Counted from the stretch's first letter, positions 2,937-59,694 are shown. The stretch: 64,000 nt of DNA from Candidatus Melainabacteria bacterium (GCA_033763415.1 JANRKP010000024.1:2587-66586); one strand, 5' to 3'. Program-made: numbers and translations. Notes: generated from the sequence alone by a model not told the origin.

Positions 2937-3169
2937 GGAGGAGGCCCTGCCTACTGACGTGGGCAGGTAGGTACAGATACCAGTGCAGGTAACAATGCGG
3001 TGGAATGTATTTACCATGGCTTGACTCATTTTTCCAATTAGCGTTCAATTCTTCAGTGCATTCATGAAAATCGTGTGACGACTTCCGTGTATTGTTCTCA
3101 CCGGACCGACGAACTGGATGATTGCCCTTGCAACGGGGCACTGTAGATGTAATCAAGGGGAAATTCACC

Positions 3170-4783
3170 ATGCGTGTTTCAAGCTTTCAGGCTGCCATTC
3201 AACCTGTTTCCAATCGTCAAAACCCAACGGTGCCCACACCCGCCGCGCGGGTTAGCCTAAACGCCGTCGATACCGTCTATTTTGGCGCGCGCCAATACGA
3301 CGAGCGTTTTGCGACCGAAGCGTATAAAGGCAACGAACTGTTTCCAGATTTGATGGCCTATAACGCTTGGGTTTTTGATGCCACGCGACAAATTGCCCGA
3401 GAAAAGCTTGAGACAGACTTGGCCAAGCTCGACGAGCAGCCAGTGAAAGATTTAACCCCGTTTCGGGGTAAGGAAATTGAGCCATTTTATACCGGAACAT
3501 TAAGCCAGGGAGAGCTGACCTGCATTTTGGCGGGCAAACTCTTTGATCACGAAATTCGGGTACTCCATGCTCGTGGAACAGACAAAGAGATGCAAATGCG
3601 TGCAGAACGCAATGAATACCGCGATCGGGCGGCCCATTTCAGCCCACTGCTCGCCGAATGGACTGCCGCGGCGAACAATGCCGACGGACAGCCCGCTGGC
3701 TTTTTTACAGAAGTGATGAAGCCTTTTGTGGATGGGACTTTCATGCAAGATCCCACGCTGTCGGGTCGGTGGTCGCTGAAGAATGGCTACTTCCAGGCTT
3801 GGCAAGATTTATTTACCGAGCGCTCCGCCAAAACAGGCCGCCAGTACATGGAAGAAATCCCGGTACAGTTTAACCTGCCGGATGGAACCGATGCCGCTGA
3901 CCACAAAACGGCAACGCCACCTGTGGCGGAAACCATTGCGAACCATCCGTGGGAAACCGACGGAAAAACGGGTTGGGGCCATCAGGTTTTGACCGATTTG
4001 GAGGCAGCATTGCACCCTGAAACGGCCAGTCGTTCCATTCCAGAGATTATTCCTGCCGCAACAAAAGCTTTTAAGGATGAACGCGCGGAAGCAGAACGAG
4101 CCAAAGAAAGAGCCGAAGCCGAAGCCAGTTCCTCTATGTTCCGTGGCTTAAAAGCGATCAAGCAGGTAGAGCGACGGTTAGAAAGCATTCCCAGACTCGC
4201 CAACGCTTCTCCAGAATTTAAGCAGGAGATGAAGCGCCAGGTTTTCCAAGTGGCTCAAATGTCTCCCGAAGGCCGCGGGGCGCTCTTCTCCTTTAAAGCC
4301 TTAGAACTGCTCAATGAACAGGTGCGGCGCGATTCGATAGCCGCTGGTACAGACTCAGACAGCCTCCAGGATCAACTTCCTGAGGGCTTTGCCAAGGCAC
4401 TGCGACCGAAAGTCTATAAAGCTGCAAAAGGCGAGTTTCCCGGTGATGTAAAGGTAGATGACGCCAGCTACCAAGAGCGGATTCAAGATTTGATGGGTCT
4501 TTGGGAAATAAGCCGTAAGCAAATGACATCGCAAGAGATTGTACAATACCTGGATCATCTTCCTGCTATTGATCCGCGAGAGGATAAAATGGTTGCACTT
4601 CAGACCATGACCGCAGCGGCAGAAGCACTTGAAGTGAACTATCCTCAAGAGATCTGGAACGCCTACGAAACAATGGTCGCTGCCGAGCCGACACTCAAAG
4701 TCCCCGTATTAGAAGAGCGGCTAAAAGAACGCTTGGCTCCTTATTTACAAGCCGCGGCGGCAGACACTGAAACTTCAAAATAG
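3170..4783 (+). CDS. hypothetical protein (about 537 aa), Glu/Lys-rich coiled-coil-like C-terminal half
   Basis: Long intact ORF. Start placed at ATG 3170 with an aagggga RBS upstream. No family recognized. Confidence 0.5.
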   Translation: MRVSSFQAAIQPVSNRQNPTVPTPAARVSLNAVDTVYFGARQYDERFATEAYKGNELFPDLMAYNAWVFDATRQIAREKLETDLAKLDEQPVKDLTPFRGKEIEPFYTGTLSQGELTCILAGKLFDHEIRVLHARGTDKEMQMRAERNEYRDRAAHFSPLLAEWTAAANNADGQPAGFFTEVMKPFVDGTFMQDPTLSGRWSLKNGYFQAWQDLFTERSAKTGRQYMEEIPVQFNLPDGTDAADHKTATPPVAETIANHPWETDGKTGWGHQVLTDLEAALHPETASRSIPEIIPAATKAFKDERAEAERAKERAEAEASSSMFRGLKAIKQVERRLESIPRLANASPEFKQEMKRQVFQVAQMSPEGRGALFSFKALELLNEQVRRDSIAAGTDSDSLQDQLPEGFAKALRPKVYKAAKGEFPGDVKVDDASYQERIQDLMGLWEISRKQMTSQEIVQYLDHLPAIDPREDKMVALQTMTAAAEALEVNYPQEIWNAYETMVAAEPTLKVPVLEERLKERLAPYLQAAAADTETSK

Positions 4784-4936: not shown

Positions 4937-6199
4937 ATGAAGCCCCATCTTGTTTTCTTCCACCAAAACTATCCCGCCCAGTTTGGTCCAATTATTCAGT
5001 TTTTGTTGAAGCATTACGAGGTGGATATCACCTATTTTAGTGAGCATCGACCAAAACCGGTGTTTCCAGGAATGGAGCACCGGTTTTATCGTTCGCACAA
5101 TGTGCCGAAATTTGAAAACCCATACTTTTTTACGCGCTACATTGAGCTGGAATCCCGTGCCATGTACGGCGCCTATTTGGCTTACGAGAAGCAAAAGCCA
5201 CGAGACGCCGACGTGCTGATTGGACATGTGGGCTTTGGCAACCTGATGTTTTTTCACGGAGCCTACCCAGAGATTCCGACCATTGGCTTTTTCGAAATTT
5301 TCTATGACCTCCTCGGCGGGGATCGCCCTGGATTTGAGCCTGCCTTGGAAAACAAGCTTCGGCGGCCCATTCGGAATGCCACCCAACTGCTGGAACTGGA
5401 ATACTGCACCAAGGGGTACTCGCCCACCCGTTATCAGCGCTCCACTTTTCCACAAGCCTACCAGCACAAGCTGCATACTTTGTTTGACGGGGTAGATGTT
5501 TCTCGCTACTCGCCCGGGGAAGTGGGGCATCAGTCCGAACTTCCCTGCACTTGGCCCAAAGACGCCAAAATTGTCACCTATGTGGCTCGTGGATTAGAAT
5601 CCTATCGTGGTTTTGACATTTTTATGGAAATGGCGCATCGTATCTGCCAGGTGCGTAACGATGTCCACTTTGTGATTGCAGGTCGCCCGAAAACACATTA
5701 CGGGCCAGATTTACGCTACATTCAAGAGCCCAGTTTCAAGGAGCACGTCCTCAAACAACACCCGTTTGATTTGTCGCGTTTTCACTTCTTAGATTGGATT
5801 TCAGAATCCGCCTTGGCCGACCTCTTTCGGCTCAGTGCGTGCCATTTTTACTGGACTGTTCCTTTTACCCTCTCCTGGAGCTTTTTCCAGGCGATGGCCA
5901 GTGGCGCACTGATTGTTGGATCAGACACAGAGCCAGTTCGAGACGTACTCATTCACGGAATGAACGGCCTGATGGTCCCTCCCTACGATGTCGACACCAT
6001 GGTCCAAACGGTTCTCTCTGCGCTAGACCACCCACAACACTATCAACCGCTCAGAGAGGCGGCCCGGGATACGGTCGTCAACCAGTACAGTTTTGAGGTT
6101 TGTCTGCCCAAGCTCGCCGATTTTTACCTGTCTGCACTCTCTCCTGCCAGCAGACCCTCGTTACAGCAATCCACACTTGCAGCAGCACCGTCAATCTAA
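4937..6199 (+). CDS. GT-B fold glycosyltransferase (GT4-like, group 1)
   Basis: The C-terminal region FQAMASGALIVGSDTEPVRDVLIHGMNGLMVPPYDVD matches the GT4 nucleotide-sugar binding consensus. The gene is convergent with the T1SS outer-membrane gene. Confidence 0.65.
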   Translation: MKPHLVFFHQNYPAQFGPIIQFLLKHYEVDITYFSEHRPKPVFPGMEHRFYRSHNVPKFENPYFFTRYIELESRAMYGAYLAYEKQKPRDADVLIGHVGFGNLMFFHGAYPEIPTIGFFEIFYDLLGGDRPGFEPALENKLRRPIRNATQLLELEYCTKGYSPTRYQRSTFPQAYQHKLHTLFDGVDVSRYSPGEVGHQSELPCTWPKDAKIVTYVARGLESYRGFDIFMEMAHRICQVRNDVHFVIAGRPKTHYGPDLRYIQEPSFKEHVLKQHPFDLSRFHFLDWISESALADLFRLSACHFYWTVPFTLSWSFFQAMASGALIVGSDTEPVRDVLIHGMNGLMVPPYDVDTMVQTVLSALDHPQHYQPLREAARDTVVNQYSFEVCLPKLADFYLSALSPASRPSLQQSTLAAAPSI

Positions 6200-6282: not shown

Positions 6283-8154
6283 TTAGGGAGCAACTACTTT
6301 TAAGTCGAGCGGTTGGATTTGTTCCGCATTAGCAGCAGGACTTAGCACCTGCTGATCGAGCGCCTGACGCTCCATGGTATCAGAGGCACTGTCCCAGGGT
6401 TTGCTGGCCTGTAGCGCCTGTTGTCGCTCCATTGCAATACGCGTCCGAAGGAAATCAGGGGTAAGCTGACCCGTTTCGTATAGCAGGGCAAGCTGAGCGG
6501 TATTAAAGTTTAAAATAGACGTTTTGTAAGCCAGACGAGCATCGGTCAGCTCTGTTTGCTGTTGCACCACTTCTAGGTTAATGCCCACACCCGTCTTTAA
6601 CCTGGATACGGCAATACGATAGGCTTCTTCCGCTGCAGTTAAACGCTCATCAGCCGCTTTGAGTTGATCGCGGTACTGATTATATTCATAAAACGCCTTG
6701 GCAATTTTCTCCTGAATTTCGTTGAGTTGTAGCTGTTGACGCAGCGTCAACTCAGTCACGCGGGCTTTGGCGGTTTTCATTCCACCCAGAATGCCCACCC
6801 CCATGTTGCGCAGAATATCCACATTAATGCGGCCACCCAACTGATTGACCGCCTTCAGGCTACCGACTTCTGGCCCGACGCCACCCATGTAACTGCCAAC
6901 AGTAATCGTGGGAAAGAGGTCGGCTCGCGCCATTTTGTACTCGGCACTGGCTTGATTAATTTGGGCCAGCAACTCCTGAATGTCCGGCCGTTGCGCTTTA
7001 GCCATTTCAATATAATCAGGCAGTTTCATTGCATCGTCTAAAAAATGCGTGGGACGGATGCGACGAGTCTCTGGCTCGACCTCCATACCAAAGGGCACAT
7101 TTAAGGTTGAGGTAAGCTGAACCTTGGCAAAAGACTCTGAGTTCTTGGCTTTGTAAAGCAAAGACTCTCGTTCGGCACGTTGCGCCACACTTTGCAGGAC
7201 ATCCAACTTTTTAGAAAACCCATGATTGAGACGCTTTTCGTGATAATCCTGCTGCGCTTGAGCTTCCAGTAAAGATTGCTCCGCCACCTCCACGTTCGAC
7301 ATATCGCGCAACATCACATAGTATTCTTTCAGCGCCTGATGCAAATTTTCCTGAAACGCCCGTCGACGGGCTTCCTGCGCAGCCTTGAGCCTATTTTTAG
7401 CAGCAGACACCCTAAAAATGGACTTACCCCCTGTCTGAATGGTGTAATCCAGCGATAAGCGGGGGAAATGCGTCGTGCGCTTCAAATTAATCGGCCGGGA
7501 ACTGAGCACAATCGTTCCACCGTCAAATTTTTCCAGAAAATATTCCCCGCTGATTGAAGGCAATAACTCCGCGTATGCCTGCCACAGACCACCTTTTGTC
7601 TGCTCAACCACAGCATCAGCAATGGCAACGTTCAAGCTCTGAGACTCAATGAGATCAATGACGGCTTCCAGGTTTAAAACCAACACCTGCGCACCCAGGG
7701 TAATTTTGCCATCCGTTACGCTGGAAGGCAAATCTGTCGTGGTAGAGGGCGAAGGCTGCGATGGGGCTGAAGGCTCATAGGGCTGAACTTCGGCTAACGG
7801 TTCAGAGCCCGCCTCTTCTTTAGGTGCCGAGGTAGAGGCCGACGAGCCATTGGACGCCGAAGAGGCCTCCGATTGCGTCGAAACTGGCGACACATTGGGC
7901 TCAATCGGCGCCATCTGCGTTACGGGATCCGCCTCCAATGTTTGTGCTTGGATTGGCATACTAACTGACAAAAATAAAACTGCAAGCAGCACCCCTGTGG
8001 AGGTAAACCGGGTTAAAAGCTGAGTTTTGCGACGCACGATAGTGTTGCCAAGCATTGAATGTTCCCAATCATATTTTACATCGTATGAGGGAGCGGACCG
8101 TAATACCCTCAGCAGATTACTATAAGTCATTGGCCAAAACAACGATAAATACAA
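6283..8154 (-). CDS. TolC-family outer membrane efflux protein (T1SS outer-membrane factor) with an N-terminal signal peptide and an S/P/T-rich linker of about 100 aa. The likely start is the ATG at 8055.
   Basis: Paired outer-membrane-efflux-protein repeat pattern (LNLEAVIDLIESQSLNVAIADAVVEQTKGG..., LYETGQLT...). Signal peptide RRKTQLLTRFTSTGVLLAVLFLSVSMPIQAQT. Last gene of the T1SS operon. Confidence 0.8.
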   Translation of the reverse strand: MYLSLFWPMTYSNLLRVLRSAPSYDVKYDWEHSMLGNTIVRRKTQLLTRFTSTGVLLAVLFLSVSMPIQAQTLEADPVTQMAPIEPNVSPVSTQSEASSASNGSSASTSAPKEEAGSEPLAEVQPYEPSAPSQPSPSTTTDLPSSVTDGKITLGAQVLVLNLEAVIDLIESQSLNVAIADAVVEQTKGGLWQAYAELLPSISGEYFLEKFDGGTIVLSSRPINLKRTTHFPRLSLDYTIQTGGKSIFRVSAAKNRLKAAQEARRRAFQENLHQALKEYYVMLRDMSNVEVAEQSLLEAQAQQDYHEKRLNHGFSKKLDVLQSVAQRAERESLLYKAKNSESFAKVQLTSTLNVPFGMEVEPETRRIRPTHFLDDAMKLPDYIEMAKAQRPDIQELLAQINQASAEYKMARADLFPTITVGSYMGGVGPEVGSLKAVNQLGGRINVDILRNMGVGILGGMKTAKARVTELTLRQQLQLNEIQEKIAKAFYEYNQYRDQLKAADERLTAAEEAYRIAVSRLKTGVGINLEVVQQQTELTDARLAYKTSILNFNTAQLALLYETGQLTPDFLRTRIAMERQQALQASKPWDSASDTMERQALDQQVLSPAANAEQIQPLDLKVVAP

Positions 8155-8203: not shown

Positions 8204-9472
8204 TTAACTTTTATTGCTCGGATCCCGGAAAGCACGATCCACTTTGACTTGAAGCGGTTCGGTAAAGAAACTGAGAATGGATTTTTCCCGAGTAATAATA
8301 TCGGTGTTCACACTCATTCCGGCGCGCAACGGATACTGTTTTCCGCGATTATCCACCACGGACTGGGCATCCGGCTTAACACGCGCCAAGTAAAAAATAT
8401 GTCCTTCCTCATCGTGCGTGGAAGACGGAGAGATGCTTTCGACCACACCAAAAATGCGCTCAAATTTCTGAATCGGAAACGCATCAAAGCGTAAAGCCGC
8501 CCGCTGACCCGGATGAATGTAGGCCAGATCCTGGTTGGTGATTTTCACTTCCGCCACCAGGGTTGCATCCTGCGGCACAATGGAGAGTAAATCTTCGCCC
8601 GCCCCCACCACATCGCCCGGGCCACGAACCTTTTGCTCGTGAATAATGCCATCAATGGGCGACGTCACCACCTGAAGCTTGCGCGTCAGCTCGTTCCGCT
8701 CCACATCATGGCTCAGGCTTACCACGTCCTTCTCCAGCTGCGTCAGGCGGTTGAGCAGCGTTTCTTGATAGCTGCCCTTGACGTGGCCAATGTCTTCGCG
8801 AGATTTGGCCAAAAACATCTGCCGGGCCTGAATCTCTTCTGCTATCGTACTCAAGTCTCCGCGCTGGTCGATCACCTTTTTTTCAAAATCCTTGTACTCC
8901 AGCTCAGAAAGGCCCCCTTCCTGATAAAGCGCCTTGTATTTTTTGAGCAGCGCTTCGTTGGTTTCCAGTAAGGTCTGCATTTTCTTACTTCGCTGCAACG
9001 CCTCTTGCACACGATGTTGCGCTTCTTCAACCTGAAGATGAGAAGCCCGCAGCTTGGATTCATACGACTGACGGGTGGCATTGAGCCATTCGCCAGAAGT
9101 GCCCGAAGGGAGACGTCCGCCCCTCTCCTGGCCAGTCGTCGCAGCCTGAAGTGCCGCTGCTTCCTGCCGAATCAATGACAGCTCGCCCTGGCTACGCCCC
9201 TGATCAATTCGAGTGCCTTCCGTGTCCAGCTCAAAAAGCACCTGTCCTTTGCGAACCACCTGGTTTTCCGTGACATAAACCTTAATGACCACCCCGTTAA
9301 TCGGGCTCCGAATAGTCCGATACTTACCCATGGGAACCATTTCGCCCACCCCTGGCACCGATTCTTCCAGGTTGCCAAAGGCCGACCACACTCCCAAGCC
9401 CAGAAAGCCCAGGGTGAGTAAAGCAAAGAAGACAAACGAAACGTAAACAATACTCTTCTGCGATTGTTTCAT
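8204..9472 (-). CDS. HlyD-family type I secretion membrane fusion / periplasmic adaptor protein
   Basis: N-terminal TM anchor, long coiled-coil middle and a C-terminal beta domain typical of HlyD. The ATG at 9472 has a ggaga RBS. Sits between the ABC and TolC genes. Confidence 0.85.
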   Translation of the reverse strand: MKQSQKSIVYVSFVFFALLTLGFLGLGVWSAFGNLEESVPGVGEMVPMGKYRTIRSPINGVVIKVYVTENQVVRKGQVLFELDTEGTRIDQGRSQGELSLIRQEAAALQAATTGQERGGRLPSGTSGEWLNATRQSYESKLRASHLQVEEAQHRVQEALQRSKKMQTLLETNEALLKKYKALYQEGGLSELEYKDFEKKVIDQRGDLSTIAEEIQARQMFLAKSREDIGHVKGSYQETLLNRLTQLEKDVVSLSHDVERNELTRKLQVVTSPIDGIIHEQKVRGPGDVVGAGEDLLSIVPQDATLVAEVKITNQDLAYIHPGQRAALRFDAFPIQKFERIFGVVESISPSSTHDEEGHIFYLARVKPDAQSVVDNRGKQYPLRAGMSVNTDIITREKSILSFFTEPLQVKVDRAFRDPSNKS

Positions 9473-9494
9473 CACAGGGGGGATCTCCAGACGG

Positions 9495-11762
9495 TTAGGA
9501 ATGGGCAACAGAGGGACGCAGCGGGGTCACCGCAGAAACAGGGGCAGGATTGGCCTCCTGTTGATACAGGTGATAATAAAAACCTTGCGCCGCCATTAAA
9601 TCCTCGTAACGACCCTGCTCGACAATGTGCCCATCGTGCAACACCAAGATCAGGTCCGCCAGTTGATGCGCAGGCTGAAAGTCGGTTACCAGCAAGCAGG
9701 TCCGTTCGCGATAACGGGTCATGAGTTGCTGCAACACAGCGCCTTTCAAGGCGGGCTCCAGGGCATTAATCGCCTCATCCAGGATGAGAATGGACGGATT
9801 TCTCAAAAACGTTCGCGCAAGGGAAATTCTGGCCGCCTGCCCACCCGACAGGTTGGTTCCAAGCGCCTCGACCGGGGTTTCAAACCCATTGGGCAAAGTG
9901 TAAACGTACTGGTCAAGCTGCGCCATTGAGGCGGCGTCTACAATGGCTTTCATCGGCGCGTTGGGGTAGCCCACCGCAATATTATCTCGAATGGTGCCAC
10001 TGAACATGGCGACCTTTTGCACCGCCACGCCCACGTGATCTCGCAGACTTTCAACATCCACGTCGCCGGTATTCACGCCGTCTACCAGGATGTAACCCTC
10101 CGTTGGCGAATAGAGCCGCTGAAGAAGACGAATTAAAGTGGTTTTACCCGCCCCGCTGCGTCCCGCCAAAATGACCTTTTGCCCCGGTTGAATGTGGCAG
10201 CTCACATGCTTGAGCACCATCGGCGCTTCGGGCGAATAACGAAAGCCCACATCCACCAGCTGAATATCGCCTTTCACCGAATCAAGCAGCACTTCACCAC
10301 CTGCGCCAAGCGCTGTGGCATCGGCATCTGCCTGCATCTGACGGAACTGCTCCAGCGAACCGAGCGATTCATTGAATTGGGCCAGGTTTTCCAGCAGCTT
10401 TTGCGCATTGCTGATAATCTGACGACTCAGCATATTAATGGCAATGTAAACCCCAAAGCTGATCACGCCCTCCAGCACGCGGTGGGCGCCAAAGTACAAG
10501 GTCACCAGCATACTCAGTAGGGCTAAAAATTGCTGCACATCAGCCATCTTCAAGCGATCAAAGCGTGGGCCGTAGCTTTTGGGCAACACCTCTTCCTTAA
10601 ATCGTTCGCGAATAGAACGCTTGATGTGCCCTTCCGCGTCCAAGGATTTCAACGTCTCGGCGTGCTCCAACACTTCCGAAAGGCGCAAGCGGTACTGACG
10701 CTGTTCTTTTTCAAAGGCCAAACTTTTTCGTTTTAAATTGGGCACCGACCAGAACATTTGAACGGCAATGGGCACCAGCGATAGCAGGGAAATCACCGCC
10801 AACTGAAAGTCCAGCATCAGCAGAAAGCCCACAATCACGGCAGAAAAAAGCATGTCCAGCGAAGTCATCAGCAGGGTTTGCCCCACCACCTGGTTCAGCC
10901 GCGTCAGTGTTCCAAAATGATCCGCCAGCAGGCGCGCCTTGTCCTTCAATGTATCTTTCAACTGAAGATGAAACAAACCATCTAAAAAGAGATCCACGGT
11001 TAAGCGGTCCACTTGGTTAACCACATAGCTGAGCACAAACACCCGCAAGTAGCGCACCAAAAACTGGAACGTCAGCACCAAAATCATGCCAATGGCCATC
11101 ACATCCAACGTGGCCAGGTTTTGGCGTCCAAACACCCGATCAAAAATAACCATGTAAAATAGCGGCACGGCCAGAGTAAACACCTGCGCCATAAAGGAGG
11201 CCATAAACATTTGAGTGCTAAACAGGCCATTGGCTAAAAACAGGCCCGCATACCAGCGCAGACTGAATGCATCGGGCTGATTGACGCTCCAGGTGCGCGG
11301 CTGCGGCAGAATACGCAACGTCCTAACCGCATCTGGATGCTCGCACTGATGTTGCTCGATTTCGGTGGTTTTAGGGCCGATTTGTGCGTGTAACGCAGCT
11401 CCCTGGCGTCGAGTGACCCAATAGGCTTCGGTACCCATTTGCACCACTCTGGGAAATGGCGCTTTCAGTAGCGCGTTCCAAGACAGCGTCTCGATTTTCG
11501 CTGAAAAACCCAGATCTTGAAGATGCTGAGCCAAGCTCTCCAAGGATTGAACGTCGCCCCGGGCCACATCCGCAAAACGATGGCCCCCGCGATGACGCAG
11601 TGCTTTTTGAACGTGCCGATAACATGCCTGCAAAACACTGTCCCACGAACCCACTGCCAGCGAGGAGTCCGGTAGCGACTGCGACGCGCTGAGGTGCTCT
11701 GGAGAACCAAAAGCCCGCGTTGTTTCTAGCGCGATGCCGTGGGCAGAATTTTTTGCAGCCAT
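9495..11762 (-). CDS. Type I secretion ABC transporter (HlyB-like, ATPase/permease), possibly with an N-terminal non-catalytic C39-like domain
   Basis: Walker A GRSGAGKTT, signature LSGGQ, Walker B ILILDEA, six-TM exporter core. About 150 aa lie N-terminal to the TMD with no catalytic Cys evident. Confidence 0.9.
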   Translation of the reverse strand: MAAKNSAHGIALETTRAFGSPEHLSASQSLPDSSLAVGSWDSVLQACYRHVQKALRHRGGHRFADVARGDVQSLESLAQHLQDLGFSAKIETLSWNALLKAPFPRVVQMGTEAYWVTRRQGAALHAQIGPKTTEIEQHQCEHPDAVRTLRILPQPRTWSVNQPDAFSLRWYAGLFLANGLFSTQMFMASFMAQVFTLAVPLFYMVIFDRVFGRQNLATLDVMAIGMILVLTFQFLVRYLRVFVLSYVVNQVDRLTVDLFLDGLFHLQLKDTLKDKARLLADHFGTLTRLNQVVGQTLLMTSLDMLFSAVIVGFLLMLDFQLAVISLLSLVPIAVQMFWSVPNLKRKSLAFEKEQRQYRLRLSEVLEHAETLKSLDAEGHIKRSIRERFKEEVLPKSYGPRFDRLKMADVQQFLALLSMLVTLYFGAHRVLEGVISFGVYIAINMLSRQIISNAQKLLENLAQFNESLGSLEQFRQMQADADATALGAGGEVLLDSVKGDIQLVDVGFRYSPEAPMVLKHVSCHIQPGQKVILAGRSGAGKTTLIRLLQRLYSPTEGYILVDGVNTGDVDVESLRDHVGVAVQKVAMFSGTIRDNIAVGYPNAPMKAIVDAASMAQLDQYVYTLPNGFETPVEALGTNLSGGQAARISLARTFLRNPSILILDEAINALEPALKGAVLQQLMTRYRERTCLLVTDFQPAHQLADLILVLHDGHIVEQGRYEDLMAAQGFYYHLYQQEANPAPVSAVTPLRPSVAHS

Positions 11763-12607
11763 GTGTGTTTTGCCTTCTTACTACTGACATCCGATTGCGA
11801 CAGTCGAGCCACTTGCGCCCGTTCTGGCAACGCACAATCGTTAACGCGTTTTTCCAAAGAGACGGTGGCCAAAGCCATTTGCCGTTGCAGCCATTGATCA
11901 AAGAGTTGATCTCGAATTTTGGAAGACAGCGCCTGGGTCAACGTCATTTGCTCCAGACGGTAAAGCCTGGTCATTAACCACTTTCCGGGCTGGACGCTAA
12001 ACGGACTGGACACCTGACCAGGCGTCAGCGCCAGTAAGCGCTCTCGAAAAGCAGGATGCAAACTCAACACGGTCACCGGGCCAATCATACCGCCCTGGTC
12101 TGCGTTATAGCCTTTTGAATGGCTTAGCGCAAGCTGGTAAAAATCCTGGTGCTGCTCCGTAAGCTGCACAAACAACTGTTGCGCCAACGCCGATTCCGTC
12201 ACCATGATGGCGCCAAAAATAACCCGATCATAACCCGCCTTTTGAGACAGAAAACGCTCTTGAACTGCGGCATCTGGAATAACCACCCGCTTTAGACGGT
12301 TCAGGGCTTCTTTTTGAGCCAAATCCGAACGAAAAGACTCAACCGTATGGTGCTTTCGGCGCAACCACTGCTCAAACGCCTCTGCCGTGGTTAAACGGTG
12401 CTTCTTGCAGATGGCATGCATCCGTTGCTCGGCAAGGCTCCAGTCGGGATAAATACCGTATTCATCTAGCTTTTTTGCTAAAAAGAGCGGCTTGGCAATG
12501 CCCATCTCAACAGAGGCCAGCAAATGACGCTCCTCTAACTGAGACAGCGCCGTCTCTAACGGGGACCACTCGTCCCACAAACGAAGAAAGTATGAATTCT
12601 CTTGCAC
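11726..12607 (-). CDS. Parvulin (PpiC)-type PPIase-domain protein, SurA/PrsA-like, putative chaperone
   Basis: C-terminal segment DQGGMIGPVTVLSLHPAFRERLLALTPGQVSSPFSVQPGKWLM resembles the parvulin fold consensus (GGdlGwf...l.pGe.S.pv.t..G.hii). Its 3' end overlaps the start of the ABC gene by about 37 bp. Confidence 0.45.
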   Translation of the reverse strand: MQENSYFLRLWDEWSPLETALSQLEERHLLASVEMGIAKPLFLAKKLDEYGIYPDWSLAEQRMHAICKKHRLTTAEAFEQWLRRKHHTVESFRSDLAQKEALNRLKRVVIPDAAVQERFLSQKAGYDRVIFGAIMVTESALAQQLFVQLTEQHQDFYQLALSHSKGYNADQGGMIGPVTVLSLHPAFRERLLALTPGQVSSPFSVQPGKWLMTRLYRLEQMTLTQALSSKIRDQLFDQWLQRQMALATVSLEKRVNDCALPERAQVARLSQSDVSSKKAKHTWLQKILPTASR

Positions 12608-12912
12608 GGTGCGTGAACTATTCCTTTAGTGAGCGCGAGGGAGCGGATTACCGACTGGCTGCATCAAGGACTGTGTTTTTTCCAAAGTGGAGAGCCCTTT
12701 AATCATCCATAAAAAATCGCAGACGTCAAAATTGCGTTGATATTTGACACCTTGGTTGGTAACAAAAGAGGGTCGAACATTTACAAACAAAGTATACAAT
12801 CTGCAGATCCAGGACTTAAAAGACAACACTCCTGGAGCCCAAAGCGGAGAACCAGGAGTGTTGAAAAGAAGTGCTCTTACAGCGTTAGCTAAAACACTGT
12901 ACCAGCATTGAC

Positions 12913-15900
12913 TTAGCCGAGGGTGAAGGTTTCGCCGCCGACAATGTCTGTGTTTTCTAGAACGATGGCGCTACCGCCGTCATCCAGAATGATGTGCTCA
13001 ACCGTGTTGTCGATCACGCTGATGGTATTACCAGTGCCATCGAAGGTCACCAGCAAGTCATCGGCAAACGTGTCGCCATCGGCATCCACGAAGGAGAAGC
13101 TGACATCGCCAGTGTAGTTGTTGATGAACAGAATGTCATCGCCACCGGCCGTATCAGTAATGGTCTGCTCAAAGTTGTTCAGTGAGCCACCGGAGAACTC
13201 GTACCAGTAGGCATCGTTTCCGGCTTCACCGTTCAACTCATCGTCACCATTGCTGGCCACGAACAGATCGAAGATGCCGTCGCCACCGTTAATGGTGTCG
13301 TCGCCATTGCCACCAAACAGGATGTCGGAGCCTTCGCCACCATTCAACAGGTCGTTGCCAGAGCCACCATCTAGGATGTCAGAGCCTTCGCCACCGTTGA
13401 TGGTGTCGTTGCCAGCGCCACCGTTGAGGTAGTCATCGCCTGCATCTCCGTTGATGGAATCCGCACCGCCGTTGCCCAGAACGATGTCGTTGTCAGCGCC
13501 ACCAAAGATGATGTCGCCGTCCACACCGCCGTGAATGGTGTCGTTGCCTTCACCACCGAGGATGGAATCGTTACCACCGTTACCGAAGATGAGATCATCG
13601 CCGGAATCACCCAGAATGGTATCATCGCCAGCTTCGCCGTAGATGCTGTCGTTGCCAGCGCCGCCTTCGATCGAATCGGCACCTGAGCCACCTTCGATGA
13701 AGTCATTGCCGTCACCACCCAGGATGGTGTCGTTGCCAGCACCACCGTCGATGGAATCATCGCCAGTGCCGCCCAGCAAGGAATCCTGGCCGTCTTCACC
13801 GATGATGGTATCGTTGCCAGCGCCACCGTCTACGGTGTCGTTGCCATCGGCTTGAGGAATGCCGATACCGTTATCAGAGTTGATGAAGTCGTTGCCGTCG
13901 CCACCAAAAATGGAGTCGTTGCCCGCTTCACCGTAAATGGTGTCGTTGCCTTCGCCACCCAGAATGGTGTCATCGCCAAAGTGACCCAGGATGTAGTCAT
14001 TGTCCAGGCCACCGTCGATGAAGTCGTTGCCGGTCCAGCCATCAATGGTATCGTTGCCACTGCCGCCGAGCAGAGAATCGCCAGCGTCATTACCCGTACC
14101 ACCATTGATGTAGTCGTTGCCAGCGCCACCCAGAATGGTATCGCTGCCTTCGCCACCCAGTAGGCTATCGTTGCCGTCTTCGCCCAGGATGGAGTCATCG
14201 CCAGCGCCACCGTCTACAGTGTCGTTGCCATCGGCTTCAGGAATACCGATACCGCTATCAGAGTTGATGATATCGTTGCCGTCACCACCCAGAATGGAAT
14301 CATCGCCCGCTTCACCGAAGATGGTGTCGTTGCCGGTTCCACCCAAAATGGTGTCATTGCCGAAGTGGGCCAGAATGTAGTCGTTATCGGCGCCACCATC
14401 AATGCTGTCGTTGCCGAACCAGCCATCAATGGTGTCGTTGCCGTTACCACCTAACAGAACGTCTCCGGCATCATCATCACCAGTACCACCGTTGATGTAA
14501 TCGTTGCCGTCGCCACCGTCAATGGTGTCGCTGCCCAGACCACCGTAAATGGTGTCGTTGCCATCTTCACCAAAGATGGAATCATCGCCACCTTCGCCAA
14601 AGATATTGTCGTTGCCGGTTCCGCCAAAGATGGTGTCGTTGCCTTCGCCGCTGTCACCATAGATGGTATCGTTGCCAGCGCCACCGAGGATGGAGTCGTC
14701 ATCATCACCACCGTGGATGAAATCGTTGCCGTCTTCACCAAGGATCGTGTCGTTGCCAGCGCCACCGTCTACAGTGTCGTTGCCATCGGCTTCAGGAATG
14801 CCGATACCGCTGTCAGAATTGATGAAGTCGTTGCCGTCGCCACCGTCGATGGAGTCGTTGCCCGCTTCACCGAAAATGGTGTCGTTGCCAGCGCCACCCA
14901 GAATGGTGTCATCACCAAAGTGGGCCAGAATGTAGTCGTTATCGGCGCCACCATCAATGCTGTCGTTACCGAACCAGCCATCAATGGTATCGTTGCCGTT
15001 ACCGCCTAACAGAACGTCTCCATCGTCGGCATTTCCGGTACCGCCATTGATGTAGTCGTTGCCGTCGCCACCGTCAATGGTGTCGCTGCCCAAACCACCG
15101 TAAATGGAATCATTACCGGCATCGCCGAAGATGGAATCATCGCCGTCGTCGCCGAAAATGGTATCGTTGCCTTCGCCACCAAACACGGTATCGTTGCCGT
15201 TACCGCCAGAGATGGAATCGTTACCGGCGTTACCAACGATAGAGTCGTCATCGTCGCCACCAAAGATGGTATCGTTGCCAGCGCCACCAATAATGGTATC
15301 GTTGCCAGCGCCGCCCAGCAGGCTATCGTTGCCCGTGCCAGCGCCACCAAACACCTGAATGTCATCGCCGTTGATGAGATCGTTACCGTCACCACCGTCG
15401 ATGGTGTCGTTGCCTTGCTCACCAAAGAGGTTATCGTTACCGGCACCGCCCAAAATGGAATCGTTGCCTTCGTAGCCCCAAACGGTATCGTTGCCAGCGC
15501 CACCCAATACGGTGTCGTTACCGGTCCAGGCATCGATAAAGTCGTTACCGTTGCCGAGGTTGGCGTAATCATCGCCAGCGCCACCGTTCACGTTATCGTT
15601 GCCATCCAAGCTGAAGATCACATCATTGCCGTCGCCGCCATTGATGGTGTCGTTCAGGTTGCCGCCAAAAATGTAGTCTTGGCCGTCGCTTCCAAGAATG
15701 GAGTCGCCGCCTTCAACACCCATCAGGATGTCATCGCCGCCGAGACCATTGATGGAGTCGTTACCGGCGCCACCCCAAATGAAATCGTTGGCCGAAGAGC
15801 CAACCAGGTTGTCGTTACCAGACGTACCAAAGGTTCCCAGTGCAAATGCCTGAGATAACAGCGACAGAACACCTGCGTCTGCGCTGTAGAGGAGGGTTAA

Positions 15901-15927
15901 GAAAGAACTAAGAGCTGGAAATGCCAT
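12913..15927 (-). CDS. RTX (hemolysin-type calcium-binding nonapeptide repeat) protein, 1004 aa, predicted T1SS substrate
   Basis: Dozens of GGxGxDxUx repeats (GGAGNDTIFG, GGDGNDYING...). Repeat-free C-terminal region of about 110 aa, acidic and Gly-rich, typical of a T1SS secretion signal. Located directly upstream of the T1SS genes. Confidence 0.9.
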   Translation of the reverse strand: MAFPALSSFLTLLYSADAGVLSLLSQAFALGTFGTSGNDNLVGSSANDFIWGGAGNDSINGLGGDDILMGVEGGDSILGSDGQDYIFGGNLNDTINGGDGNDVIFSLDGNDNVNGGAGDDYANLGNGNDFIDAWTGNDTVLGGAGNDTVWGYEGNDSILGGAGNDNLFGEQGNDTIDGGDGNDLINGDDIQVFGGAGTGNDSLLGGAGNDTIIGGAGNDTIFGGDDDDSIVGNAGNDSISGGNGNDTVFGGEGNDTIFGDDGDDSIFGDAGNDSIYGGLGSDTIDGGDGNDYINGGTGNADDGDVLLGGNGNDTIDGWFGNDSIDGGADNDYILAHFGDDTILGGAGNDTIFGEAGNDSIDGGDGNDFINSDSGIGIPEADGNDTVDGGAGNDTILGEDGNDFIHGGDDDDSILGGAGNDTIYGDSGEGNDTIFGGTGNDNIFGEGGDDSIFGEDGNDTIYGGLGSDTIDGGDGNDYINGGTGDDDAGDVLLGGNGNDTIDGWFGNDSIDGGADNDYILAHFGNDTILGGTGNDTIFGEAGDDSILGGDGNDIINSDSGIGIPEADGNDTVDGGAGDDSILGEDGNDSLLGGEGSDTILGGAGNDYINGGTGNDAGDSLLGGSGNDTIDGWTGNDFIDGGLDNDYILGHFGDDTILGGEGNDTIYGEAGNDSIFGGDGNDFINSDNGIGIPQADGNDTVDGGAGNDTIIGEDGQDSLLGGTGDDSIDGGAGNDTILGGDGNDFIEGGSGADSIEGGAGNDSIYGEAGDDTILGDSGDDLIFGNGGNDSILGGEGNDTIHGGVDGDIIFGGADNDIVLGNGGADSINGDAGDDYLNGGAGNDTINGGEGSDILDGGSGNDLLNGGEGSDILFGGNGDDTINGGDGIFDLFVASNGDDELNGEAGNDAYWYEFSGGSLNNFEQTITDTAGGDDILFINNYTGDVSFSFVDADGDTFADDLLVTFDGTGNTISVIDNTVEHIILDDGGSAIVLENTDIVGGETFTLG
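13400..15350. repeat. Long imperfect tandem super-repeats inside the RTX gene, units of about 384 and 555 bp
   Basis: Near-identical DNA blocks (ggcttcaggaatgccgataccgctatcagagttgatga...) recur at about 13849, 14233 and 14788. Protein-level blocks of 128 to 185 aa are repeated three times. Confidence 0.8.
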
Positions 15928-18010: not shown

Positions 18011-19069
18011 CTACAACGTAGCCAGTGCCGCCTGACGCAACTGCTGGTAGAGAGCAATTTCTGCCGCCGAAGGAGCTTCCGGCAAAAGCGCCTGCACTTT
18101 AACCAGCAAGTCTCCTGCCACAGCACCTGATAGCGCGATACCGTGCCCACGAAGGCGAAATCGCTTTCCGGCCTGCGTATTCGGGGGAATTGTCAGCGTC
18201 ATTGCGCCAGAACGAAGGGTGGGCACCGCAATCTCCGTACCCAGCACCAGATCGTAGACCGGCACCTGGGCCTCGTACAGCAAATGAGTGCCTTCCACCT
18301 GAAAATGCGGGTGAGGCTGGTAACGAACCACCAGGTAAGCATTTCCGGTTTGCCCGCTGGCGGCCGTCTGCCCCTCTCCGGCCAAACGAATCTTCTTACC
18401 AGGCGCCATGCCCTTGGGAACCCGCACCTGAACGGATTTGCCTGAGTGCTGGAGGTGAACCGTCTTGAGGGTATCGGTGGCTATTTCTTCCAGGGTCAGC
18501 AAAAGCGGCTGTTCCACATCCAGGTTTGCCGCCGCCGAAGCAGAGCCGGACGATGTTCTGCTACTTTGGCTGGTGTGGGTGTATTGCGTTTGCGTTCGGC
18601 GGCCCCCGCCAGGGACAGACTGCTCGTATTGGCTGTAGGTGTACCCTCCGCTACCACCCGGGCCACTGCCGCCCGGTGCGGTGTTCGCTCGCGAGCCCAT
18701 GGCGCCAAACAGCAGATCAAAAAAGTCGGAAAAACCACCGCCCGCATTGCCAAAACCACCGGGCGCGGGCCCAGCGCCTCGCCCGCGAAACTGCTCAAAC
18801 AAACTGCCCAGATCATCAAAACCAGGCGGAGGCTCAAAGCCGGAACCGTGACTCCAGTTACTACCCAGGCTATCGTAACGGCGGCGTTTTTCCGGGTCGC
18901 CCAGTACTTCGTAAGCCTCGTTAATTTCTTTAAACTGATCCGCACCCGCCGGGTTCACATCCGGGTGATACTTGCGGGCCAGTTTTCGGTAAGCCGCCTT
19001 GATTTCCTTTTCGGAAGCGGTTCGGCTGACGCCTAAAATCTTGTAATAATCTTTGTAACGAACCGACAT
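18011..19069 (-). CDS. J-domain protein of DnaJ class II / CbpA type (no zinc finger)
   Basis: N-terminal J domain (YYKILGV...HPD). G/F-rich region. C-terminal DnaJ substrate-binding domains. No CxxCxGxG repeats. Confidence 0.8.
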   Translation of the reverse strand: MSVRYKDYYKILGVSRTASEKEIKAAYRKLARKYHPDVNPAGADQFKEINEAYEVLGDPEKRRRYDSLGSNWSHGSGFEPPPGFDDLGSLFEQFRGRGAGPAPGGFGNAGGGFSDFFDLLFGAMGSRANTAPGGSGPGGSGGYTYSQYEQSVPGGGRRTQTQYTHTSQSSRTSSGSASAAANLDVEQPLLLTLEEIATDTLKTVHLQHSGKSVQVRVPKGMAPGKKIRLAGEGQTAASGQTGNAYLVVRYQPHPHFQVEGTHLLYEAQVPVYDLVLGTEIAVPTLRSGAMTLTIPPNTQAGKRFRLRGHGIALSGAVAGDLLVKVQALLPEAPSAAEIALYQQLRQAALATL

Positions 19070-19679
19070 AAAATGCCAACAGTGACCCTTCACACGCTAC
19101 TTTATGACAGACGCCCGGCCATAACCCTGGTTAAGAACAGGCTCGGCCCGCACCGTTTTGGCATCGCTTCGGTTTAGCAAGAAAAAACCGCAAAGCCCAA
19201 ACGCATGGTTATTATACAGAGAAACCACACGGATACCCATCCCCCCCCTGTGGGCAAAAGCGCCCACGGAGAAAAGGCCTCCCTCCTCCAAGAAAAATGG
19301 TTCCTGCGTTTTAAGACGGTTCGTTAAAGCTTTCGTTGGACTGGGGTTGTTAGACTGGAGTTGTTAGACTGGGTTTATTAAACTGGATTGGTTGGACTTG
19401 ATCCAGGAGGTTGATCCACACTATAAATAGAAGCGTCGGTAAAAACGGCTGATCCGCAGAATATTGCAGCGGCGGCTGCCTACTTGCGCTCTGGGTTCTG
19501 TTTCTGGGGTTTTTCTGCAAAATCCAAAGCAGGCCGTAAAAGAAGCAGACCGTAACAACAGTCCGACTTCTGGCAATTTCAGCCCAGCTCATTTCGTAAA
19601 CCACCGCGCAACGGGACTTGCCCTTTGCTTGAGGTTTTAGTCTTGAGGTTTCGAGCCCACAGGAAATGCAGTTTGTGGT

Positions 19680-20684
19680 TTGAACGCCCGCCCGACTTGG
19701 AACAGGAGATCCACTGGTATGATGACTACTTCCTTTTTGTCTTTCTTGCTGGCCAACTTGCTGGCCGCTGTGCAAAAAACCGTGCTGGAGCAGAAAACCA
19801 TGCTGGAGATCCTGCATCCTTCCACCCGGCGCCATTCCTCCCAACCGCATTTCACTCGACAGTCCAAAGGGCTCGCCACCATCGGCTTTGTGGCGTGCAT
19901 TGGTATCAGTCTTCTGCTTCCCTCAGCGGCTCTGGCCGAAGGGAGCGCCACCTGGTGGAACCCCATGAGTTGGCTTTCCGTGGAAACCGCCAATGACGCC
20001 AAAAAGACAACCCCACCCGACAAGGAGGCAACACCCCCTTCATCCAACAAGATGAGTAAACCCAAAAACGCTGTAAGCGCGACCAAAGGCAGTATTCCCG
20101 AAGCGTACCGAGGCGCGCTGCTACAGACAGAAAAAGGAAATGTGGTGCTGGAACTTTACCCCGAAGAAGCGCCCAAAACCGTTTCCAATTTTGTTAATCT
20201 GGTTGAAAAAGGCTTCTACAATACGCCCAATATGAAGTTTCATCGGGTGGTGGCCAACTTTGTGGTGCAAACCGGAGACCCGACCGGTACGGGCTACGGT
20301 GGCTCCAAAGAGCGAATTCCCCTGGAAGTGAAAAACAAGCTCTCGCACGACCGCAAAGGAACGGTCGCCATGGCCCGGGGGGCGGATCCCAACAGCGCCA
20401 GCAGCCAGTTTTACATTACACTGACTGCGCAAAAACATCTGGATGGAAAATACGCCATTTTTGGCCGCGCCATTAGTGGGCTGGATGTGCTGGACCAAAT
20501 TGAGCCCAATACCAAACTGTACGGCATCAAGCTCATTGATATTCGCAGCGTGCGGATTGACCAGGCAGCCAATGCTCCCAAAACCTGGAAGGATTCAGTC
20601 AAGGGGTTCTTCATTACCCCCTCGCCAGAGGAACAGGCCAACCGCAAACTGATGGATCAGGTGCCTTCGGCCTCCTTGGACTAG
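19680..20684 (+). CDS. Periplasmic cyclophilin-type peptidyl-prolyl cis-trans isomerase. The true start is probably the ATG at 19719 or 19800.
   Basis: Cyclophilin core (FHRVVANFVVQTGDPTGTGYGGS, GTVAMARGADPNSASSQFYITL) preceded by a signal peptide (IGFVACIGISLLLPSAALA). Confidence 0.85.
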   Translation: MNARPTWNRRSTGMMTTSFLSFLLANLLAAVQKTVLEQKTMLEILHPSTRRHSSQPHFTRQSKGLATIGFVACIGISLLLPSAALAEGSATWWNPMSWLSVETANDAKKTTPPDKEATPPSSNKMSKPKNAVSATKGSIPEAYRGALLQTEKGNVVLELYPEEAPKTVSNFVNLVEKGFYNTPNMKFHRVVANFVVQTGDPTGTGYGGSKERIPLEVKNKLSHDRKGTVAMARGADPNSASSQFYITLTAQKHLDGKYAIFGRAISGLDVLDQIEPNTKLYGIKLIDIRSVRIDQAANAPKTWKDSVKGFFITPSPEEQANRKLMDQVPSASLD

Positions 20685-25549: not shown

Positions 25550-26836
25550 TTATCTGGCATAAACAGGCTTTGTAGACTCCGCACAGTGCTGTTGTAACTG
25601 CTCAGCCATGCGCAATGCACTGTGGTTGGGCAAGCCAAGCTGGTTCCTCACCTGGCGAGAGGCCTCAGACGGATCTGCGGGCGGTTGCCGTAATTGCTGT
25701 AATAGTTCTGCTGCCAGTGTCTCTACTTTCGTATACCGCGAGAGTAACCCTTGGGCCACTGGCGCATTCCATTGCGTGGGATTGACGGGCGGGCCAGTGA
25801 GTAAGACGGGCTTGCCCAGCATCAACCCCTGCACCACCATCGAAGAATCCTGGGTCAGTACGGCGCTGGCCTGCGCTAAAGCCCGTTCGGTCGGCTGGTG
25901 TTTGGGCAGAATTTCAACCAAACCCGTCAGCCCCATGCGGTCAATCCACTGACGTTCGACAGCCCCGTCCTGGCTGGGATGCAGTGCCACCTGGAACTGG
26001 GCTCGTCCAGCCCATTGGCGGGCCAGGCTGCAAAATAACCCAAAAGCCTCTTCGTACCCAGCCCCATAGCCTCCAACCCATAACAGGCGGGGTGGGGGTT
26101 GCAGTGTTTGTGGGGTGCTCGGAGCGGTCAGGGGCGTCTGGGTCGCAGCATCCGTTGTCGCAGGGCTGGCGGATAGATTCTGTCGCTCCCAGCGATCGGC
26201 GGTGGGCTGGCCCACAACCGCAACCGGCATTTGGGGCAAGCATTGCCGTAGCCACGCGGCCTGCACCGCCGTGGGCACCCACCAGGCAGATAGGGTTTTG
26301 GCGAAGCGTTGGAACAACTCCGTTGTAGGATTGAGCGTGTAGCCATCGGTATAGCCCACCACGGGCGCCCCCTGGCGACGAAACAGACCGGAGAGCAATT
26401 GCTGAAAAGGAGAAACCACCCCGGTCATCACCACGGCCGGGTGCAGCCGCTGACAGAGGGTCGTCATTTGCTGCCACCAGGCGGCTTGCTGGGTTGGCGT
26501 GCCCGCCACAGGCGCATCGGGCAAGGAGACCTGATGCGGGTGTCCGGCCAACAGTCGGCTGGCCGTGCCCGTTGTCAGCAATGTGTAGGGAACGTGGGCT
26601 TGCGCCAGCCTGGCAATAACGGGCCGCAACGCCTCGGTTTCTCCGGCATCGTGCAGTAAAAAAGCCACCCCGGACGACTCAGCCACCGGCACAGATACTG
26701 TCGTTTGCCGATTGGCGCTTTTTGGCCAAGCACTATTTGGCCAAGCACCTCTTTGGCAGCCAGACGGGGGTATGGCTGTTGTATTTGTAGCTGTTGTATT
26801 TATAGCTGTTGTACTAAAGCAGAGCGTTGTACCCAT
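25550..26836 (-). CDS. hypothetical protein, possibly GT-B fold glycosyltransferase-like. The 5' end is uncertain because a repeat-rich region lies at 26700 to 26830.
   Basis: Long ORF. Weak resemblance to the Rossmann-like GT-B C-terminal half (KPVLLTGPPVNPTQ...). Direct DNA repeats at its 5' end. Confidence 0.35.
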   Translation of the reverse strand: MGTTLCFSTTAINTTATNTTAIPPSGCQRGAWPNSAWPKSANRQTTVSVPVAESSGVAFLLHDAGETEALRPVIARLAQAHVPYTLLTTGTASRLLAGHPHQVSLPDAPVAGTPTQQAAWWQQMTTLCQRLHPAVVMTGVVSPFQQLLSGLFRRQGAPVVGYTDGYTLNPTTELFQRFAKTLSAWWVPTAVQAAWLRQCLPQMPVAVVGQPTADRWERQNLSASPATTDAATQTPLTAPSTPQTLQPPPRLLWVGGYGAGYEEAFGLFCSLARQWAGRAQFQVALHPSQDGAVERQWIDRMGLTGLVEILPKHQPTERALAQASAVLTQDSSMVVQGLMLGKPVLLTGPPVNPTQWNAPVAQGLLSRYTKVETLAAELLQQLRQPPADPSEASRQVRNQLGLPNHSALRMAEQLQQHCAESTKPVYAR

Positions 26837-54324: not shown

Positions 54325-54426
54325 AAAAAAGTTCGTTCATAAAAGTTCGTTTGACTTTTCAACACCCTTGCGCGATAAGTAACAGAAAATAAAAAATAAA
54401 ATTCAGTTTTTTTATTCAATAATTTT

Positions 54427-54501
54427 GGGCGGTTAGCGCAGTGGTAGCGCACCACATTGACATTGTGGTGGTCACAGGTTCGAATCCCGTACCGCCCACC
54501 A
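54427..54501 (+). tRNA. tRNA-Val (anticodon GAC)
   Basis: Cloverleaf folded by hand. Acceptor GGGCGGT/ACCGCCC. D arm GCGC-AGTGGTA-GCGC. Anticodon stem CCACA/TGTGG with loop TTGACAT, giving anticodon GAC. T loop TTCGAAT. 3' ACCA. Confidence 0.85.
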
Positions 54502-54516
54502 TTTTTTTAAAAGAAA

Positions 54517-54551
54517 AAAGCAGCGATTGGAACCACCAGTCGCTTTTTTAC
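54517..54551 (+). terminator. Rho-independent terminator after tRNA-Val
   Basis: agcgattgg-aacca-ccagtcgct hairpin (9 bp, one G-T wobble) followed by tttttt. Confidence 0.55.
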
Positions 54552-59693: not shown

Positions 59694-59694
59694 C

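Follow-up and report, generated by a model that had tools for sequence, protein, structure and literature searches.

A predicted cytoplasmic, parvulin-like protein encoded with a type I secretion exporter in Candidatus Melainabacteria as a candidate holdase/adaptor subunit

We analyzed a 64,000-nucleotide stretch of DNA, one strand, from a Candidatus Melainabacteria bacterium (GCA_033763415.1, JANRKP010000024.1:2587-66586; the window) and characterized a parvulin-like gene at 11726..12607 on its minus strand, which lies among the genes of a type I secretion system (T1SS). This accessory gene, as we call it, is consistently found upstream of, or fused to, the gene for the ATP-binding cassette (ABC) exporter of the T1SS, and for this reason we consider its product most likely a dedicated helper of the pump. 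More specifically, we propose that the protein is a dedicated cytoplasmic, non-catalytic holdase/adaptor subunit of the T1SS of this lineage, a reading to which we give about an even chance.

Five genes follow one another on the minus strand in the order RTX, accessory gene, ABC, HlyD and TolC-like. The RTX gene (12913..15927) encodes a 1004-aa protein with Gly/Asp nonapeptide repeats (PF00353, HemolysinCabind, E = 3e-187, 34 stretches), the presumed cargo of the exporter; inspection of its N-terminus by eye revealed no double-glycine (GG) leader. After a 305-nt gap comes the accessory open reading frame (ORF), encoding 293 aa from a GTG start at 12607 to a TAG stop at 11726. It is followed by a HlyB-type T1SS ABC exporter of 755 aa (9495..11762; PF00664 and PF00005; TIGR01846 at 357 bits, below the cut-off), a HlyD-family membrane fusion protein of 434 aa with a TTG start (8204..9508; TIGR01843 at 249.9 bits, cut-off 208.65) and a TolC-like outer membrane factor of 623 aa (6283..8154; PF02321 OEP, E = 1.4e-35; TIGR01844 at 98.7 bits, below the cut-off). 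The set expected of an RTX T1SS (ABC, HlyD-family, TolC-like and RTX proteins) is all present at this one locus, with HlyD alone exceeding the cut-off of its TIGR T1SS model. The end of the accessory gene overlaps the ABC start by 37 nt (11726..11762), with AAGAAGG located 10 nt upstream of the ABC ATG at 11762, and the HlyD start overlaps the ABC stop by 14 nt. On two contigs carrying an identical protein (L005 and L006), an independent gene caller gave the same two overlapping genes, and an identical protein also occurs on a record from an NCBI metagenome-assembled genome (MAG) labelled Candidatus Melainabacteria. Because an in-frame TAA stands 7 codons upstream of the GTG, the N-terminus of the protein cannot be extended. 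Read from its sequence, the accessory gene is the predicted first cistron of an export sub-operon (accessory gene, ABC, HlyD, TolC) and is predicted to be translationally coupled to the ABC gene. A preliminary description of this DNA had placed a parvulin-like gene between the RTX and ABC genes with its end overlapping the ABC start, and this arrangement held up.

We searched the accessory protein against curated domain models using profile hidden Markov models (HMMs). The Pfam Rotamase model PF00639 matched residues 140-208 (E = 5.2e-8, 34.2 bits, gathering score 21.7), Rotamase_3 scored 22.1 bits, slightly below its cut-off, and Rotamase_2 (PF13145) gave no significant match. The significant hit to the first model goes against one of the two refuting outcomes named in the preliminary description, the lack of a parvulin-domain match. 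An exhaustive HMMER search retrieved 1348 cluster representatives at E ≤ 1e-3, of which 391 were at E ≤ 1e-10. The best match (E = 5e-42) covered residues 8-262, and the best matches were near full-length, 30-38% identical and mostly 245-290 aa long; no sequence retrieved was more than 38% identical to the window protein. The existence of this full-length family argues against the ORF having arisen by chance. Word-indexed protein searches returned the query alone for the single sequence and four family members for a 30-sequence profile, and a genome scan using the single protein found no relatives. Conserved features of the 30-sequence alignment were an N-terminal L-W-x-E motif, a helical region, and a parvulin-like core with a C-terminal LFxxW helix (F236 invariant); the LFxxW motif was retained in 75 of 108 family representatives. 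At about 250 aa, the family was encountered in this analysis only among Cyanobacteria and Melainabacteria.

None of the curated NCBIfam models claims the family. TIGR04500 was the best curated neighbor for 27 of 30 members (best E = 4.8e-13; individual scores 28-47 bits) and scored 47.3 bits against the window protein (cut-off 180), and the NifM model TIGR02933 was second best for 22 of 30, scoring 26.8 bits against the window protein (cut-off 168.2). We rejected membership in either family because these scores fall far below the cut-offs. The family also includes tandem duplicates (P0007, P0008, P0020 and P0023) with two chaperone-plus-parvulin modules in 460-590 aa. P0007 (L045:1634-3022) is encoded on a 3.9-kb contig where its upstream neighbor weakly matches HemolysinCabind and its downstream neighbor is an acetyltransferase; no ABC gene is visible there.

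To place the gene in its genomic context, we searched a single genome of each GTDB species for the ABC motif FY[MI][VI]IFDR / VFGRQN and obtained 17 genuine relatives, nearly all labelled Melainabacteria, Gastranaerophilales, Vampirovibrionales or Caenarcanales. With the family HMM, we detected the accessory gene in 8 of these Melainabacteria-type loci (L007-L010 and L014-L017), in each case directly 5' of the ABC gene and with junctions that vary between an 11-nt overlap and a 26-nt gap. The exact gene order of the window (RTX, accessory, ABC, HlyD, TolC) recurred in L009, L016 and L017, and RTX genes were located downstream in L010, L014 and L015. L014 and L015 (= L001) are MAGs labelled "uncultured Gammaproteobacteria" that carry both the ABC motif and the accessory gene. 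Elsewhere the motif turned up almost exclusively in Melainabacteria-type MAGs; the label or the binning may be wrong.

A tblastn search over 72,556 plasmids matched 23 records, all of them cyanobacterial. In all seven cyanobacterial plasmids inspected, the gene right after the accessory gene encodes an ABC exporter (840-1009 aa); this is followed by HlyD in five and by a gene for an unannotated protein of HlyD-like size in the other two, and the accessory and ABC genes overlap by 4 nt in three. On Acaryochloris pREB1 the order is HlyC-like acyltransferase, 1365-aa calcium-binding protein, accessory gene, ABC and HlyD. Two metagenome loci likewise have the accessory gene directly 5' of a T1SS ABC gene. 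Where cargo genes adjoin, they are large. They belong to the RTX type in the window, L009, L016, L017 and Acaryochloris pREB1 and encode giant proteins in Aulosira, Calothrix and PCC 7002. The accessory-ABC pair of the Aulosira and Calothrix plasmids is immediately preceded by genes (L037:1-4607 and L038:1-4350) that the records show as spanning about 31 kb and 35 kb, with the annotations polymorphic membrane protein and peptidase S8/S53; these are candidate giant T1SS cargos.

In two family members, the module is part of the exporter itself. P0006 (961 aa) consists of the module, a domain at the C39-like position, a transmembrane domain and a nucleotide-binding domain, while P0019 (897 aa) has the module, the transmembrane domain and the nucleotide-binding domain with no C39-like domain. 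These are independent fusions to the N-terminus of the same ABC subfamily. Their operons are otherwise normal, with genes for HlyD-like and OEP proteins following at overlapping boundaries, and one of the two lies on a 131-kb contig. Such fusions argue that the module and the ABC protein are partners, both physically and functionally. Together with the conserved gene order and the tight or overlapping junctions, they support two of the ideas raised in the preliminary description, namely that the protein is a chaperone dedicated to the system and that it is one of the accessory parts of the secretion apparatus. A generic annotation would also fit an unrelated housekeeping peptidylprolyl isomerase (PPIase) that neighbors the operon by chance, a reading to which we attach almost no credence: the position recurs in 17 further loci and the two fusions, across two sister lineages and at 24-38% protein identity, and the junctions overlap or are tightly spaced. 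We rejected it on the synteny and the fusions.

We next modeled the protein with AlphaFold2 (AF2) on the 30-sequence alignment and ran Foldseek against the PDB. The model had a mean predicted local distance difference test score (pLDDT) of 90.4 and a predicted template-modeling score of 0.78, with residues 1-250 folded; from the single sequence, the pLDDT was 39. Residues 1-126 (12230..12607, minus strand) form an N-terminal beta-hairpin containing the LWDE motif and a helical domain (strands at 7-10 and 13-16, helical from 17 to 126; pLDDT 95-98), a predicted equivalent of the chaperone (NC) domain of PrsA and SurA. The parvulin-fold domain (residues 128-220; 11948..12226) corresponds to the PF00639 match. 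Next is a C-terminal helix with the LFxxW motif (residues 225-246; 11870..11935), recovered by both the alignment and AF2, in which F236 is invariant and W239 nearly so; by analogy with PrsA and SurA, it would pack back onto the N-terminal domain. A predicted disordered tail (residues 255-293; 11729..11845; pLDDT 46-53) completes the protein. It is unique to the window protein, with no counterpart among 29 aligned relatives, and its last 12 codons overlap the ABC start.

The top Foldseek matches were PrsA of several Firmicutes (best, 6vj4, E = 9e-10), then SurA, PEB4/Cj1289 and HP0175 (E 1e-6 to 1e-9 across the four). The parvulin domain superposed on the PrsA and SurA P2 domains with a root-mean-square deviation of 1.6-1.9 Å (1.6-2.2 Å including Pin1; target TM-scores up to 0.87). 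At the profile level, the family matched PrsA 6vj4 over profile positions 21-236 (E = 5e-12) and the SurA parvulin domains with a whole-protein E of 2.6e-14, the best stretch being SurA residues 175-252. The PrsA/SurA architecture therefore applies to the whole protein and not just its center: on the model, it is a helical chaperone domain with a parvulin domain inserted.

The PDB proteins that match the whole chain are all extracytoplasmic, and the nearest solved structures, PrsA, SurA and PEB4, are extracytoplasmic chaperones. This would fit the preliminary description, which had raised the issue of a periplasmic foldase and suggested a folding or anchoring factor for the RTX protein. We found no signal peptide, lipobox, transmembrane segment or membrane anchor in the accessory protein. 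Its first 12 residues contain one basic residue and no hydrophobic core, its highest 19-residue hydropathy (1.56) falls inside the parvulin fold, at its first strand and helix, and, as noted, its N-terminus has no room for extension. A strongly hydrophobic N-terminus was present in just 3 of 154 retrieved sequences, leaving 151 with no signal peptide-like start. The N-terminal end of HlyB/PCAT-type exporters is cytoplasmic, and since the module in the fusions is N-terminal to the ABC transmembrane domain, it should be on the cytoplasmic side. From the lack of a signal peptide or lipobox, we predict that the accessory protein resides in the cytoplasm and does not work as a foldase of the periplasm. 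A foldase role in the periplasm or outside the cell, or an anchoring role toward the RTX protein, is therefore very improbable, and nothing supports anchoring.

To assess whether the domain could be an active PPIase, we assigned the catalytic columns by alignment to Par10 and Pin1, whose reference sequences were entered by hand, and counted residues over the 108 representatives. The first catalytic histidine was absent from every one of them (0/108), its position being taken by L, I, M or V in the family and by A133 in the window protein. The Cys/Asp position was Gly in 79 of 108 (G166 in the window protein), the second histidine position was W, F or Y, or L or V (W210/L211), and both histidines occurred together in none. 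The structural Gly and Ser were retained, and the positions of the pocket (Pin1 L122, M130 and F134; I175, L183 and F187 in the window protein) remain hydrophobic. Since the canonical catalytic residues are missing family-wide, the accessory protein is probably not an active prolyl isomerase. With the fold and the hydrophobic pocket kept and the His/Cys(Asp)/His set lost, the parvulin domain most likely binds polypeptide without catalyzing isomerization, as a peptide-binding pseudo-isomerase. SurA residues 175-252, the stretch best matched in the PDB, correspond to the first SurA parvulin domain, which binds peptide but is not known to have PPIase activity. The public annotation "peptidylprolyl isomerase" is a problem for this gene, given that the catalytic residues are absent. 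That annotation, the Rotamase match above the gathering score, the conserved fold and pocket, and the dispensability of the dual histidines in some parvulins would all agree with a catalytically active cytoplasmic prolyl isomerase that uses a non-canonical site on a proline of the cargo or the transporter. We consider this improbable in view of the residue counts and of the SurA stretch just described.

Next, we characterized the partner exporters. The window ABC protein has an N-terminal domain of about 165 aa at the C39-like position and no cyclic nucleotide monophosphate (cNMP)-binding domain. Its N-terminus (179 aa) had no Pfam match at E ≤ 1, including C39, and the domain had no sequence match in the PDB. 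A conserved domain of about 130 aa occupies the C39-like position of HlyB in this protein and in the 8 Melainabacteria-type partner ABC proteins, all of which have an N-terminal extension made up of a weak cNMP-binding domain and the ~130-aa domain; in Pfam, the ABC proteins of L008, L014 and L016 gave weak cNMP matches only. An hhalign comparison of the window domain with cyanobacterial C39-like domains was colinear but weak (E = 1e-3, probability 20%). The accessory gene accompanied 9 of the 12 loci whose ABC protein has the N-domain and none of the five relatives without the N-terminal extension (Fisher p = 0.009, for loci that are not phylogenetically independent). The preliminary description had named absence of the gene from otherwise syntenic T1SS loci as refuting; this outcome occurred only in part, the gene being absent from L012, L013 and L023, which have the N-domain, and from all loci without it, and present in the 8 Melainabacteria-type loci.

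Both cyanobacterial exporters that we scanned carry cNMP-binding and Peptidase_C39 Pfam domains, and the other five align across the C39-like region. Relative to PCAT1, the Nostoc protein has Gly in place of the catalytic Cys and Ser in place of the catalytic His, and the same holds in 7/7, so these cyanobacterial domains look non-proteolytic by sequence. Non-proteolytic C39-like domains are of the type associated with large cargo carrying a C-terminal signal (PMC8277102). The cyanobacterial partner exporters (L035-L041; e.g., L036:9756-12683) are annotated "peptidase domain-containing ABC transporter."

The mechanism that we find best supported is as follows. Translational coupling would have the accessory protein made stoichiometrically with the ABC protein; it would then dock on the cytoplasmic N-terminal region of the exporter; once docked, it would hold long unfolded cargo, here the 1004-aa RTX protein; and the held cargo would stay secretion-competent and be passed to the transporter. 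Our data directly show the domain content and fold, the missing export signal, the lost catalytic residues, the conserved linkage and coupling to the ABC gene, and the fusions to it; docking on the transporter, cargo binding and holdase activity are what we infer. The bolder claim, that this family is the first dedicated operon-encoded cytoplasmic T1SS chaperone subunit, a SurA/PrsA-fold pseudo-isomerase that docks on the ABC protein and holds very large unfolded cargo, we hold with less assurance, at a little below an even chance.

The main rival reading is that the protein, in the manner of NifM, would serve the ABC transporter itself and not the cargo, as a factor for its assembly or maturation that stabilizes or folds the cytoplasmic domains of the exporter. 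NifM, a parvulin-like protein of the cytoplasm, is required for maturation of the P-loop ATPase NifH, and its model is the second-best curated neighbor of the family. MirC, a member of the nearest curated family discussed below, stabilizes its enzyme partner and co-purifies with it. Coupling or fusion of the accessory gene to the ABC gene is seen irrespective of the cargo nearby, with some loci having no adjacent cargo at all. Against this, close ABC relatives without the N-domain, and three with it, manage without the accessory gene; ABC exporters generally need no such factor; and all NifM scores are far below the cut-off. On balance, we consider transporter maturation unlikely.

Several points weigh against the holdase/adaptor reading. 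In L007, L008 and L043, the accessory gene sits in operons with no obvious cargo gene nearby, which a role directed at the transporter fits at least as well as one directed at cargo. The P0019 fusion lacks the C39-like domain, and this domain is therefore not the sole docking site. The homology of the window N-domain to C39 is weak, and L012, L013 and L023 have N-extended ABC proteins with no accessory gene within 5-6 kb. Finally, the two parvulin histidines are not strictly required for activity in Pin1, so that the sequence leaves room for residual isomerase activity.

Part of this association has been described before. A rotamase-domain protein named "SurA" was reported with HlyD and a "long type" ABC protein in cyanobacterial bacteriocin cluster groups I, II and VI and was given a putative "modification" role (Wang et al. 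2011, PLoS One, PMC3140520). As in those clusters, a rotamase-domain gene adjoins an ABC exporter and HlyD in the window, and the same family appears in the same gene order on the seven cyanobacterial plasmids. In contrast, the clusters of Wang et al. have GG-leader precursors and a C39 peptidase, whereas the window has a 1004-aa RTX protein as its cargo candidate, includes TolC in the operon and encodes an ABC protein with no cNMP-binding or recognizable C39 domain; the "peptidase" domain of the seven cyanobacterial neighbors also differs from theirs in having Gly and Ser at the catalytic Cys and His. The co-occurrence with the ABC exporter is thus already known from 2011, and the window gene is a divergent Melainabacteria member in an RTX/TolC-type operon. 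As far as we found, this analysis adds the predicted location in the cytoplasm, the degeneracy of the active site, the extension of the PrsA/SurA architecture over the full protein and the ABC fusions. Full-text literature searches on parvulins in type I secretion and on type I secretion in Melainabacteria brought up neither a functional study of this gene nor any connection of parvulins with the T1SS.

Among better-known proteins, PrsA (a Gram-positive lipoprotein foldase) and the periplasmic SurA and PEB4/Cj1289 share the helical chaperone domain, the inserted parvulin domain and the returning C-terminal helix, and the first parvulin domain of SurA, likewise, binds peptide and is not known to be PPIase-active. 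Unlike PrsA and SurA, the accessory protein has no signal peptide or lipobox and is genetically tied to an ABC exporter; sequence identity is 11-18%, and whole-chain TM-scores are 0.3-0.4, presumably because the domains are oriented differently. NifM resembles it as a cytoplasmic parvulin-like accessory protein with one dedicated client, but its model scores as given above, and no nif genes were among the window ORFs scanned against Pfam. MirC (TIGR04500, "PpiC_rel_mature") is cytoplasmic, has a chaperone domain like that of SurA and is the required partner of a graspetide synthetase (PMC13097080). The likeness extends to its being an obligatory partner not described as an isomerase and to a cluster that also encodes a peptidase-containing (PCAT-type) ABC exporter; the differences are that its partner is an ATP-grasp enzyme of Actinobacteria, that MirC has an extra N-terminal RRE-like domain (PMC13097080), and that the accessory family scores far below the TIGR04500 cut-off. 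By function, SecB, on which HasA secretion depends, and HlyB's C39-like domain, which tethers unfolded HlyA (PMC8277102), are analogous in that they are cytoplasmic and keep T1SS cargo unfolded or tethered before export. However, SecB is a general chaperone of unrelated fold encoded outside the operon, and the HlyB domain is part of the transporter. The precedents of SecB with HasA, the HlyB domain and MirC make a cytoplasmic holdase/adaptor plausible.

The window contains further features around the operon. About 50 nt past the RTX stop, RNA folding on the minus strand gave a stable hairpin followed by GUCUUUU (12815..12862). The fold of 12805-12880 had a free energy of -27 kcal/mol (z = -3.4, 0/200 shuffles as stable). 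The element is terminator- or attenuator-like, a function we infer, and resembles the hlyA-hlyB attenuator. A scan of the RTX-to-accessory-gene interval for consensus terminators and promoters found nothing convincing; the hairpin went unflagged by the terminator scan because its loop is long. Within the RTX gene, identical promoter-like strings occur at 13733-13760 and 14558-14585, 825 nt apart (also at 15275-15329), and the protein has long near-identical blocks, so the gene contains large internal tandem duplications besides the nonapeptide repeats. A Glyco_trans_4_3/GT1 glycosyltransferase gene (4937-6199, plus strand) adjoins the operon, and two distant relatives have a gene of this type immediately upstream of their accessory-ABC operon (L042:1496-2755 and L043:5821-7041); given this recurrence, it may be a conserved neighbor.

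Farther away, 2-5 kb upstream of the RTX gene, are a DnaJ-type co-chaperone gene and an adjoining gene for a cyclophilin-type PPIase (18011-19093, minus strand, and 19680-20684, plus strand); the PPIase has an extra N-terminal region of about 145 aa, and the pair may be unrelated housekeeping genes. At 50174-54324 on the minus strand, two adjacent ABC half-transporter genes overlap (682 and 722 aa; ABC_membrane plus ABC_tran); their products probably form a heterodimeric exporter that has no relation to the T1SS. Over the last 10 kb (54000-64000), the G+C content falls from about 0.55 to 0.40-0.47, and an AMP-binding enzyme gene is found with several same-strand ORFs; this region may be a horizontally acquired or biosynthetic island. 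Three large ORFs of 553, 732 and 428 aa (3122-4783, plus; 37135-39333, plus; 25550-26836, minus) had no Pfam match at E ≤ 1e-5.

To our knowledge, type I secretion is usually described as a three-component process with no dedicated chaperone, the exceptions being the general chaperone SecB in the case of HasA and, in HlyB, the C39-like domain built into the transporter. The conservation in these operons of an apparently cytoplasmic protein of SurA/PrsA fold, in some cases joined to the pump as one polypeptide, suggests that the T1SS has a fourth component in the cyanobacterial lineage, where the systems that have the accessory gene export very large proteins. The same gene triad is found in tractable cyanobacteria such as Nostoc PCC 7120 (pCC7120alpha; homologue WP_010999866.1), Picosynechococcus PCC 7002 (pAQ7; homologue WP_012305545.1) and Acaryochloris, which makes the hypothesis directly testable. 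If it is true, the T1SS of Cyanobacteria and Melainabacteria would be a four-component machine.

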